Positions 47,301 to 53,300 are shown, counted from the first letter of the stretch. The stretch is DNA of 64,000 nucleotides from Eledone cirrhosa (GCA_964016885.1 OZ024765.1:19592001-19656000), one strand, 5' to 3'. Notes: generated by a model not told the origin, from the letters alone. Translations and numbers: made by a program.

Positions 47301-50300
47301 CACCCTAATTAATAAACCAATACCACCCTAATTAATAAATCAATACCACCCTAATTAATAAACCAATACCACCCTAATTAATAAACCAATACCACCCTAA
47401 TTAATAAACCAATACCACCCTAATTAATAAACCAATACCACCCTAATTAATAAACCAATACCACCCTAATTAATAAACCAATACCACCCTAATTAATAAA
47501 CCAATACCACCCTAATTAATAAACCAATACCACCCTAATTAATAAACCAATACCACCCTAATTAATAAACCAATACCACCCTAATTAATAAACCAATACC
47601 ACCCTAATTAATAAACCAATACCACCCTAATTAATAAATCAATACCACCCTAATTAATAAACCAATACCACCCTAATTAATAAATCAATACCACCCTAAT
47701 TAATAAACCAATACCACCCTAATTAATAAACCAATACCACCCGAATTATTAAATCAATAGCACCCTAGTTAATAAACCAATACCACCCTAATTAATAAAT
47801 CAATACCACCCTAATTAATAAATCAATACCACCCTAATTAATAAACCATTACCACCCTAATTAATAAATCAATACCACCCTAATTAATAAACCAATACCA
47901 CCCTAATTAATAAACCAATACCACCCTAATTAATAAACCAATACCACCCTAGTTAATAAACCAATACCACCCTAATTAATAAACCAATACCACCCTAATT
48001 AATAAACCAATACCACCCTAATTAATAAACCAATACCACCCTAATTAATAAACCAATACCACCCTAATTAATAAACCAATACCACCCTAATTAATAAATC
48101 AATGTCACCCTAATCAATAAATCAATGTCACCCTAATCAATAAATCAATAATTTACCCTGATGTGCGAATACTCTTAGAGAAGGCTTCATCATCTGGTAG
48201 GAATATGGTGTAGGCCTGGTTGGGTGGCATGAGACGACGGACGGCGGGTCGGTTGATGTGTTGGGAGAACTGGTGTAGACGGAGATTGCGGGCTGTCTCT
48301 AGTAGGTTCTCTAATGGTTTACCTGGTGGTCAGTGAGAGAGAGAGAGATAGGGTTACCTGGTGGTCAGTGAGAGAGAGAGAGAGATAGGGTTACCTGGTG
48401 GTCAGTGAGAGAGAGAGAGATAGGGTTACCTGGTGGTCAGTGAGAGAGAGAGAGATAGGGTTACCTGGTGGTCAGTGAGAGAGAGAGAGATAGGGTTACC
48501 TGGTGGTCAGTGAGAGAGAGAGAGAGATAGGGTTACCTGGTGGTCAGTGAGAGAGAGAGAGATAGGGTTACCTGGTGGTCAGTGAGAGAGAGAGAGATAG
48601 GGTTACCTGGTGGTCAGTGAGAGAGAGAGAGATAGGGTTACCTGGTGGTCAGTGAGAGAGAGAGAGATAGGGTTACCTGGTGGTCAGTGAGAGAGAGAGA
48701 GATAGGGTTACCTGGTGGTCAGTGAGAGAGAGAGAGATAGGGTTACCTGGTGGTCAGTGAGAGAGAGAGAGATAGGGTTACCTGGTGGTCAGTGAGAGAG
48801 AGAGAGATAGGGTTACCTGGTGGTCAGTGAGAGAGAGAGAGATAGGGTTACCTGGTGGTCAGTGAGAGAGAGAGAGATAGGGTTACCTGGTGGTCAGTGA
48901 GAGAGAGAGAGATAGGGTTACCTAGTGGTCAGTGAGAGAGAGAGAGATAGGGTTACCTGGTGGTCAGTGAGAGAGAGAGAGATAGGGTTACCTGGTGGTC
49001 AGTGAGAGAGAGAGAGAGAGATAGGGTTACCTGGTGGTCAGTGAGAGAGAGAGAGAGATAGGGTTACCTGGTGGTCAGTGAGAGAGAGAGAGATAGGGTT
49101 ACCTGGTGGTCAGTGAGAGAGAGAGAGATAGGGTTACCTGGTGGTCAGTGAGAGAGAGAGAGATAGGGTTACCTGGTGGTCAGTGAGAGAGAGAGAGAGA
49201 GAGAGAGAGAGAGCTAAAGAGAGAGAGATATAGGGTTACCTGGTGGTCAGTGAGAGAGAGAGAGATAGGGTTACCTGGTGGTCAGTGAGAGAGAGAGAGA
49301 TAGGGTTACCTGGTGGTCAGTGAGAGAGAGAGAGATAGGGTTACCTGGTGGTCAGTGAGAGAGAGAGAGATAGGGTTACCTGGTGGTCAGTGAGAGAGAG
49401 AGAGAGAGAGAGATAGGGTTACCTGGTGGTCAGTGAGAGAGAGAGAGATAGGGTTACCTGGTGGTCAGTGAGAGAGAGAGAGATAGGGTTACCTGGTGGT
49501 CAGTGAGAGAGAGAGAGAGATAGGGTTACCTGGTGGTCAGTGAGAGAGAGAGAGATAGGGTTACCTGGTGGTCAGTGAGAGAGAGAGAGAGAGAGAGAGA
49601 GAGAGCTAAAGAGAGAGAGATATAGGGTTACCTGGTGGTCAGTGAGAGAGAGAGAGATAGGGTTACCTGGTGGTCAGTGAGAGAGAGAGAGAGAGAGAGA
49701 GAGAGCTAAAGAGAGAGAGAGATAGGGTTACCTGGTGGTCAGTGAGAGAGAGAGAGATAGGGTTACCTGGTGGTCAGTGAGAGAGAGAGAGAGAGAGAGA
49801 GAGAGCTAAAGAGAGAGAGAGATAGGGTTACCTGGTGGTCAGTGAGAGAGAGAGAGATAGGGTTACCTGGTGGTCAGTGAGAGAGAGAGAGATAGGGTTA
49901 CCTGGTGGTCAGTGAGAGAGAGAGAGATAGGGTTACCTGGTGGTCAGTGAGAGAGAGAGAGATAGGGTTACCTGGTGGTCAGTGAGAGAGAGAGAGATAG
50001 GGTTACCTGGTGGTCAGTGAGAGAGAGAGAGTTAGGGTTACCTGGTGGTCAGTGAGAGAGAGAGAGATAGGGTTACCTGGTGGTCAGTGAGAGAGAGAGA
50101 GATAGGGTTACCTGGTGGTCAGTGAGAGAGAGAGAGATAGGGTTACCTGGTGGTCAGTGAGAGAGAGAGAGATAGGGTTACCTGGTGGTCAGTGAGAGAG
50201 AGAGATAGGGTTACCTGGTGGTCAGTGAGAGAGAGAGAGATAGGGTTACCTGGTGGTCAGTGAGAGAGAGAGAGATAGGGTTACCTGGTGGTCAGTGAGA

Positions 50301-53300
50301 GAGAGAGAGATAGGGTTACCTGGTGGTCAGTGAGAGAGAGAGAGATAGGGTTACCTGGTGGTCAGTGAGAGAGAGAGAGATAGGGTTACCTGGTGGTCAG
50401 TGAGAGAGAGAGAGATAGGGTTACCTGGTGGTCAGTGAGAGAGAGAGAGATAGGGTTACCTGGTGGTCAGTGAGAGAGAGAGAGATAGGGTTACCTGGTG
50501 GTCAGTGAGAGAGAGAGAGATAGGGTTACCTGGTGGTCAGTGAGAGAGAGAGAGATAGGGTTACCTGGTGGTCAGTGAGAGAGAGAGAGATAGGGTTACC
50601 TGGTGGTCAGTGAGAGAGAGAGAGATAGGGTTACCTGGTGGTCAGTGAGAGAGAGAGAGATAGGGTTACCTGGTGGTCAGTGAGAGAGAGAGAGATAGGG
50701 TTACCTGGTGGTCAGTGAGAGAGAGAGAGAGATAGGGTTACCTGGTGGTCAGTGAGAGAGAGAGAGATAGGGTTACCTGGTGGTCAGTGAGAGAGAGAGA
50801 GAGATAGGGTTACCTGGTGGTCAGTGAGAGAGAGAGATAGGGTTACCTGGTGGTCAGTGAGAGAGAGAGAGATAGGGTTACCTGGTGGTCAGTGAGAGAG
50901 AGAGAGATAGGGTTACCTGGTGGTCAGTGAGAGAGAGAGAGATAGGGTTACCTGGTGGTCAGTGAGAGAGAGAGAGAGATAGGGTTACCTGGTGGTCAGT
51001 GAGAGAGAGAGAGATAGGGTTACCTGGTGGTCAGTGAGAGAGAGAGAGATAGGGTTACCTGGTGGTCAGTGAGAGAGAGAGAGATAGGGTTACCTGGTGG
51101 TCAGTGAGAGAGAGAGAGATAGGGTTACCTGGTGGTCAGTGAGAGAGAGAGAGATAGGGTTACCTGGTGGTCAGTGAGAGAGAGAGAGATAGGGTTACCT
51201 GGTGGTCAGTGAGAGAGAGAGAGATAGGGTTACCTGGTGGTCAGTGAGAGAGAGAGAGAGATAGGGTTACCTGGTGGTTAGTGAGAGAGAGAGAGATAGG
51301 GTTACCTGGTGGTCAGTGAGAGAGAGAGAGAGATAGGGTTACCTGGTGGTCAGTGAGAGAGAGAGAGAGATAGGGTTACCTGGTGGTCAGTGAGAGAGAG
51401 AGAGAGATAGGGTTACCTGGTGGTCAGTGAGAGAGAGAGAGAGATAGGGTTACCTGGTGGTCAGTGAGAGAGAGAGAGATAGGGTTACCTGGTGGTCAGT
51501 GAGAGAGAGAGAGATAGGGTTACCTGGTGGTCAGTGAGAGAGAGAGAGATAGGGTTACCTGGTGGTCAGTGAGAGAGAGAGAGAGATAGGGTTACCTGGT
51601 GGTCAGTGAGAGAGAGAGAGAGATAGGGTTACCTGGTGGTCAGTGAGAGAGAGAGAGATAGGGTTACCTGGTGGTCAGTGAGAGAGAGAGAGATAGGGTT
51701 ACCTGGTGGTCAGTGAGAGAGAGAGAGATAGGGTTACCTGGTGGTCAGTGAGAGAGAGAGAGATAGGGTTACCTGGTGGTCAGTGAGAGAGAGAGAGATA
51801 GGGTTACCTGGTGGTCAGTGAGAGAGAGAGAGATAGGGTTACCTGGTGGTTAGTGAGAGAGAGAGAGATAGGGTTACCTGGTGGTCAGTGAGAGAGAGAG
51901 AGATAGGGTTACCTGGTGGTCAGTGAGAGAGAGAGAGAGATAGGGTTACCTGGTGGTCAGTGAGAGAGAGAGAGATAGGGTTACCTGGTGGTCAGTGAGA
52001 GAGAGAGAGAGATAGGGTTACCTGGTGGTCAGTGAGAGAGAGAGAGATAGGGTTACCTGGTGGTCAGTGAGAGAGAGAGAGATAGGGTTACCTGGTGGTC
52101 AGTGAGAGAGAGAGAGAGAGATAGGGTTACCTGGTGGTCAGTGAGAGAGAGAGAGAGATAGGGTTACCTGGTGGTCAGTGAGAGAGAGAGAGATAGGGTT
52201 ACCTGGTGGTCAGTGAGAGAGAGAGAGATAGGGTTACCTGGTGGTCAGTGAGAGAGAGAGAGAGATAGGGTTACCTGGTGGTCAGTGAGAGAGAGAGAGA
52301 TAGGGTTACCTGGTGGTCAGTGAGAGAGAGAGAGATAGGGTTACCTGGTGGTCAGTGAGAGAGAGAGAGATAGGGTTACCTGGTGGTCAGTGAGAGAGAG
52401 AGAGAGATAGGGTTACCTGGTGGTCAGTGAGAGAGAGAGAGATAGGGTTACCTGGTGGTCAGTGAGAGAGAGAGAGATAGGGTTACCTGGTGGTCAGTGA
52501 GAGAGAGAGAGATAGGGTTACCTGGTGGTCAGTGAGAGAGAGAGAGAGAGAGAGCTAAAGAGAGAGAGAGAGAGAGCGAGAGCGAGCTAGAGAGAAAGAA
52601 AGAGAGAGCTAGAGAGAGAGAGAGAGAGCTAAAGAGAGAGAGAGATAGAGAGATAGAGAGAGAGAGAGAGCTAAAGAGAGAGAGAGAGAGAGAGAGAGAG
52701 AGTGAGAGAGAGCTAGAGAGAGAGAGAGAGCAAGAGAGAGCTACAGAGATAGAGAGAGATAGAGAGAGAGAGAAAGAGAGAGAGAAAGAGAGAGAGCTAA
52801 AGAGAGCTAAAGAGAGAGATAGATAGAGAGAGAGCTAAAGAGAGCTAAAGAGAGAGATAGATAGATAGATAGAGAGAGAGAGAGAGCTAGAGAGAGAGAG
52901 AGGGAGAGAGAGAGAGAGAGCAAGAGAGAGCTACAGAGATAGAGAGAGATAGAGAGAGAGAGAAAGAGAGAAAACTTGATATATATATTTAGAGAGAGAG
53001 TAATTTTTGAGATAATCCCCCGACAACATACTTGCAGCACAGCCTGGCTGTCCATCAAGAGCCTCATATCCAGGACAACACTGCAGTCGGACAAAGCTGA
53101 AATGGAAGAAATAACAGACTTTAACATGGAGAACAAACAAAAACTCCTTGGAAACTCTCACCATTGACACACAACCATATCTGTAAAGCAGATAAGAATT
53201 GTTTCTGCTTTTGGCACAAGGCCAGCAATTACCCAGTACATTACTGGTACTTTATTTTATCGACCCCGTAAGGATGAAAGGCAAAGATAACCTCGGTTTC

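Follow-up and report, generated by a model that had tools for sequence, protein, structure and literature searches.

Why would most of an intron be built from copies of its own 3' end? The question is raised by a window of 64,000 nucleotides (nt) from Eledone cirrhosa (GCA_964016885.1 OZ024765.1:19592001-19656000; positions are counted from its first letter), whose minus strand encodes a TGFBI/periostin-like multi-fasciclin protein. One intron of this gene carries an array of mostly 35-nt units in which every junction reads as a 3' splice site followed directly by GT, and an earlier interpretation, made from the DNA alone (hereafter the sequence-only reading), had proposed that the array works as a ratchet for the stepwise, recursive removal of the intron. 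Our analysis leads to a different answer. The array is a large, locus-specific minisatellite of the known kind called "mirage", whose unit spans a boundary between intron and exon, and it sits on a normally spliced gene; it is likely a tolerated repeat and not a stepwise-splicing device.

An array made from the gene's own splice site

Tandem Repeats Finder places the array at 48319-52547, with a period of 35, 119.9 copies and 94% matches. Read on the minus strand from the true acceptor outwards (48323..52547) and cut at AG|GT, it consists of 115 head-to-tail units, of which 87 measure 35 nt, 19 measure 37, two 33, two 39, one 43, two 65 and two 67. The AG|GT sites number 116, that is, 115 decoy junctions, whose AGs extend from 52523-52522 (first) to 48359-48358 (last), and the true acceptor, whose AG is at 48324-48323. 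The array of about 120 tandem copies described by the sequence-only reading is therefore real, with its count corrected to 116, and it does fill most of the intron (4.2 kb of 4,709 nt).

The commonest unit (83/115) is GTAACCCTA-(TC)7-ACTGACCACCAG, which agrees with the form given earlier, a leading stretch followed by (TC)7-ACTGAC-CACCAG. All 115 units start with GTAACC and end in CACCAG, with CACTAG as the single exception. This end equals that of the true acceptor. The view of the sequence-only reading, that the unit duplicates the gene's 3' splice site, is supported: the last ~28 nt of the intron are joined to seven nucleotides that nearly repeat the start of the exon (GTAACCC vs GTAAACC, 6/7 nt). 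Each AG is followed by GT because the first two bases of the exon are GT; judged from its sequence, the GT is an inheritance from the exon start and not a built-in donor. On the minus strand, 48357-48349 and 48322-48314 show two differences within the first eight bases, both at third codon positions. For this reason, and speculatively, the unit start may record an older version of the exon start.

Other origins for the unit fared poorly. A 28-nt pattern of the junction has 109 matches in the genome (3.0 Gb), against none for the reversed control, and since 109/109 lie inside the window the unit is local and a dispersed repeat family is ruled out as its source. By eye the unit resembles the last part of exon 41652-41575 with the donor that follows, but the best non-array alignment scores 21, no better than the 17-27 of shuffled units, and this source was rejected. 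Gain of the host intron by AGGT duplication is likewise ruled out, because this intron already possesses a donor, 510 nt upstream of where the copies begin, and the effect of the array is confined to its length.

Could a few real copies have been inflated to 116 by the assembly? No record spans the array, the word depth of its contigs is not a copy number, and the runs we used may share the sample of the assembly. However, the array contains ten distinct unit types in a clustered, non-random order, with recurring point variants. Contigs across unit junctions are also present in three runs at word depths of 94-432, one of them with a 37-nt variant. Given this clustering and these contigs, an artefact is very unlikely.

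The host gene and its transcript

The gene (11128..55381, minus strand) is found at one locus in the assembly and has 12 coding exons in the window, from 55381 to 11128. Its closest match is a protein of Argonauta hians (659 amino acids, aa), whose first ~42 residues are unmatched in the window; the 55-aa exon gave no match as a protein-search query, and a later exon recovered this homolog. The intron at issue (48323..53031, donor CAA|GTATGT) begins with 510 nt that are mostly a degenerate (TC)n tract leading into the first copy. It separates a 65-nt exon (53032..53096) from a 166-nt exon (48157..48322) that begins with GT and holds the start of the first fasciclin domain. The proposal that the last copy is the genuine acceptor, with the exon starting at 48322, was upheld in three ways: the A. 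hians protein is collinear and gap-free over the 53032/48322 junction (GCTM-SV-P vs GCAA-SK-P), the exons read through 611 aa without a stop, and a spliced contig joins the two exons.

The gene is present in four runs of one study (X1-X4), none of them recorded as RNA. In one of the four, X1, a 2,444-nt contig with a depth of 174 covers 48156-48322, and its loose ends are identical, base for base, to the neighbouring exons, upstream from 53032 and downstream from 45756. The contig is therefore a spliced transcript, in which the last acceptor and the first donor are in use. Its junctions are 53032 to 48322 and 48157 to 45757 (the next exon being 45625..45757), so that at each border of the exon the innermost site is taken. 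The decoy acceptors are thus ignored in the single transcript seen, an alternative that the sequence-only reading had itself put forward, and normal splicing is preserved in the main form, the one that contigs display. No X1 contig was found on the 48 array bases examined, and X2-X4 have no coverage of the exon; contigs drop rare forms and the records are filtered, so neither gap counts as evidence.

Splicing to the nearest upstream acceptor adds 35 nt and an early stop in the exon, as previously claimed, and the same fate extends to the whole array: a decoy used as acceptor leads to a stop in 115/115 cases, and among 6,555 pseudo-exons running from acceptor to donor none keeps an open frame; no decoy route escapes both a stop and a frameshift. 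These figures are what one would expect from a regulatory poison array, in which some transcripts would use decoys or pseudo-exons and be degraded by nonsense-mediated decay (NMD), with copy number tuning expression. But any repeat of this type would be expected to contain stops, which are no sign of regulation, and for the mirages of amphioxus PMC3087553 and PMC3902484 report no aberrant mRNAs. We regard a regulatory role of this kind as very unlikely.

The proposed stepwise removal of the intron

In classical 5' recursive splicing the upstream exon would join an internal AG and the regenerated donor would then be spliced onward, removing the intron step by step. The anatomy of the array is inviting in this respect. 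All 115 junctions juxtapose a 3' and a 5' site (pyrimidine tract-YAG|GT), pyrimidines make up 0.82 of positions -30..-3, and a CTGAC branch-like motif contributed by the preceding unit lies 43 nt upstream of each junction. Nor does length decide the matter: PMC10156609 describes recursive splicing in introns of widely differing size, with which 4.7 kb is compatible, and we dropped intron length as an argument against it.

The difficulty lies in the donor. According to PMC6110456, the donor present after a recursive first step is formed by the last three bases of the upstream exon and six bases of the site. The 65-nt exon ends in CAA, which would supply positions -3..-1 of any recursive donor. 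The sequence-only reading had likened CAG|GTAACC to a real donor of the gene, GAG|GTAACT at 38322; that donor is present as claimed, but the relevant sequence after a recursive step is CAA|GTAACC instead. It has neither -1G nor +5G, whereas all 11 donors of the gene carry one or both. In a crude pairing model with the U1 5' end (not MaxEntScan), which underlies all U1 values given here, the 11 real donors range from -3.7 to -9.9 kcal/mol and this site pairs at -3.0, a value that is equalled or bettered by 44% of 2,598 intronic GT sites and is the same as that of the true exon junction. By this model the regenerated 5' site does not look usable. Removal unit by unit would moreover proceed in steps of 35 nt, below the usual minimum length of an intron, and the same anatomy exists without GT at a kinesin gene family of this genome (see below). 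The best-supported human recursive sites regenerate strong donors (PMC6110456). Recursive removal is thus poorly supported, and we give it very little credence.

A second array and duplications elsewhere in the genome

The same exon bears a repeat at its other end. A donor-side mirage of 23-nt units occupies 46642..48156 on the minus strand, starting at the true donor AGG|GTAAAT, and contains 63 AGG|GT sites from 48156 (the true donor) to 46659, that is, 62 extra copies. The first of its units is exon-like, and the following ones drift towards a homogenised 23-nt consensus. In the crude model the U1 pairing of most of these decoys equals or exceeds that of the true donor (-7.7 vs -6.2), and the X1 contig bypasses them.

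A sample from the rest of the genome comprised 167 exon matches, 95/107 of kinesin and 72/72 of myosin; the omitted kinesin matches were four long ones, five that were not retrieved and three with a short flank. Splice sites in this sample were predicted by score and not from RNA, and a near-copy was sought within 600 nt. Near-copies were present at 7/330 predicted splice sites, against 80/933 intronic controls (23/313, 30/314 and 27/306). On inspection, six of the seven span the junction and stem from three independent events; the seventh is located 32 nt into an intron. Four of the six belong to one multi-copy kinesin gene family, presumably KIF20-like, with a 120-nt acceptor repeat located about 40-520 nt upstream of the exon match, in which AG is followed by AGC and there is no GT; it has two copies in L028, five in L030, five in L033 and three in L034 (G000 C22, C1636 twice, C18). 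These counts show local duplication to be common in the genome and less frequent at junctions, and, as the kinesin acceptor repeat indicates, it requires no GT. Together with the donor-side array, the sample makes the junction array an ordinary kind of event in this genome.

The acceptor of the kinesin family ends in CCACCAG, as does the array studied here, and the complement of this motif resembles the Chi octamer; with two cases, both likenesses may be due to chance. Low-copy duplications with spacings of 110 nt and 51 nt also occur at predicted myosin donors, with a fuzzy triple in L113 (C6:96149764), and in L101 (C10:13964521) a 33-nt array abuts a kinesin donor; the remaining loci are L115 (C5:20234717) and L136 (C6:99955519).

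Probable origin and tolerance of the array

The account that we favour, with good confidence, is that of a locus-specific minisatellite spanning the gene's intron-exon boundary, probably seeded by a small duplication, amplified by repeat turnover and tolerated. Slippage at the (TC)n tract would have seeded the initial small tandem duplication, ordinary repeat turnover would have amplified it, and unequal exchange or conversion would have spread the unit variants. In keeping with this, variant units recur in local clusters, and four units of 65/67 nt repeat the first copy's TTTAG-(TC)n border. Tolerance would follow from exon definition: acting over the 166-nt exon it would select the innermost sites, the spliceosome taking the acceptor adjacent to the exon, and any decoy product that leaked through would presumably be removed by NMD.

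Several observations weigh against this account. Array ends fall within 7 nt of a splice site in 2/26 cases (p about 0.017, a post hoc figure), and this occurrence of arrays on either side of a single exon might reflect a mutational process linked to junctions, which the account leaves unexplained. The length of the array is known from one assembly of one individual, which bears on its youth and on length polymorphism, and splicing is documented by a single contig, from a run of unrecorded library type, in a kind of data that loses rare forms. Finally, the internal CAG|GTAACC sites look usable as donors in the crude U1 model, and tandem dual-specific AGGT sites are spliced in human UBC (PMC10809524).

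These last two points are also the strength of another possibility, in which the junctions would act as self-healing, dual-specific sites. An internal CAG|GTAACC donor would splice forward to a later AG or to the true acceptor, the acceptor would be rebuilt at each cut, and the array would shrink in the RNA while random steps shorten the intron from the 3' end, with the mRNA left unchanged. In its native context CAG|GTAACC pairs at -8.0 kcal/mol, like real donors and with a strength reached by only 0.7% of the 2,598 intronic GT sites, and by sequence the joining of any two units rebuilds an identical junction while joining to the true acceptor rebuilds that acceptor. If this were true, the self-healing GT would explain growth to 116 copies, compared with 2-5 in the GT-less acceptor repeats of this genome, and internal use with regeneration of the acceptor would offer splice-site repeats a cheap route to grow. 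On the other hand, this harmless route would leave no trace in mature mRNA. In mammals, re-splicing at newly formed junctions is repressed by the exon junction complex (PMC6224609), and the identical pseudo-donors of F7 intron 7 are normally silent (PMC1557585). We consider forward splicing within the array unlikely, and keep to the tolerated minisatellite.

Other repeats in the gene

Repeats are found in other introns of this gene as well. A 72-nt repeat is present in three of them (31555-33290, 37222-37701 and 44761-45437 of the window, minus strand). On the sense strand each of its units has a GAG|GTAAAG that looks like a strong donor, with no pyrimidine tract upstream. The last intron (11.6 kb) is mostly filled by 72 copies of a 113-nt unit (11861-19990, 8.1 kb, 98% matches), an array that touches no splice site. 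In intron 30789-27300, long near-perfect inverted repeats are visible by eye at 27400-27800, 28330-28560 and 28760-28830.

Comparison with known systems

The recursive sites of Drosophila and vertebrates (PMC6110456, PMC10156609) are like the junctions of our array in having a pyrimidine tract followed by YAG|GT. They are defined, however, by splicing intermediates and a usable regenerated donor, and have been sought in conserved sequence, whereas here the donor is weak and the site belongs to a 116-fold local repeat.

Human UBC and VCX3A (PMC10809524) also have tandem units, each with an AGGT that is a potential donor or acceptor. The UBC units are coding, in frame and spliced; ours are intronic, and their combinations yield no open frame (0/6,555).

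Another comparison is with the 37-bp variable number tandem repeat of human F7 intron 7 (PMC1557585), whose first repeat spans the splice site and in which the exon-proximal site is used. It is a direct parallel to the 23-nt donor-side array (48156-46642). The F7 repeat is on the donor side and its pseudo-sites were tested experimentally, while the 35-nt array is on the acceptor side and is known here from its sequence and one contig.

The closest likeness is to the mirage minisatellites of amphioxus, described for Adh3, the globins BflGb6 and BflGb9, troponin C and PGBD5, at either boundary and with splicing undisturbed (PMC3087553, PMC3902484). There, as here, the unit spans an intron-exon boundary and repeats a splice site, 5' and 3' boundaries are both copied, and the mRNA is normal; for Adh3 the units are cited as 10-72 bp, a range that includes 35 nt. 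Three of the four marks of a mirage are present in our array: a head-to-tail repeat of minisatellite size, a unit spanning the gene's own boundary, and, in the main form, preserved splicing. The fourth mark is length instability between alleles or cells, on which the kinesin mirage bears indirectly, with 2, 3, 5 and 5 copies at four paralogous loci. Among the matches listed in our searches of the literature on mirages and minisatellites, octopus minisatellites and cephalopod recursive splicing, we found no report of a cephalopod mirage. The present case differs from the amphioxus ones in its mollusc host, in its 116 copies compared with 3-6 in BflGb6, and in the arrays that flank one exon at either end. 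With it the range of mirage minisatellites comes to include a mollusc. A 166-nt exon that has 115 near-identical decoy acceptors on one side and 62 decoy donors on the other, and whose innermost pair is used in the transcript seen, also provides a natural test of splice-site choice and exon definition.

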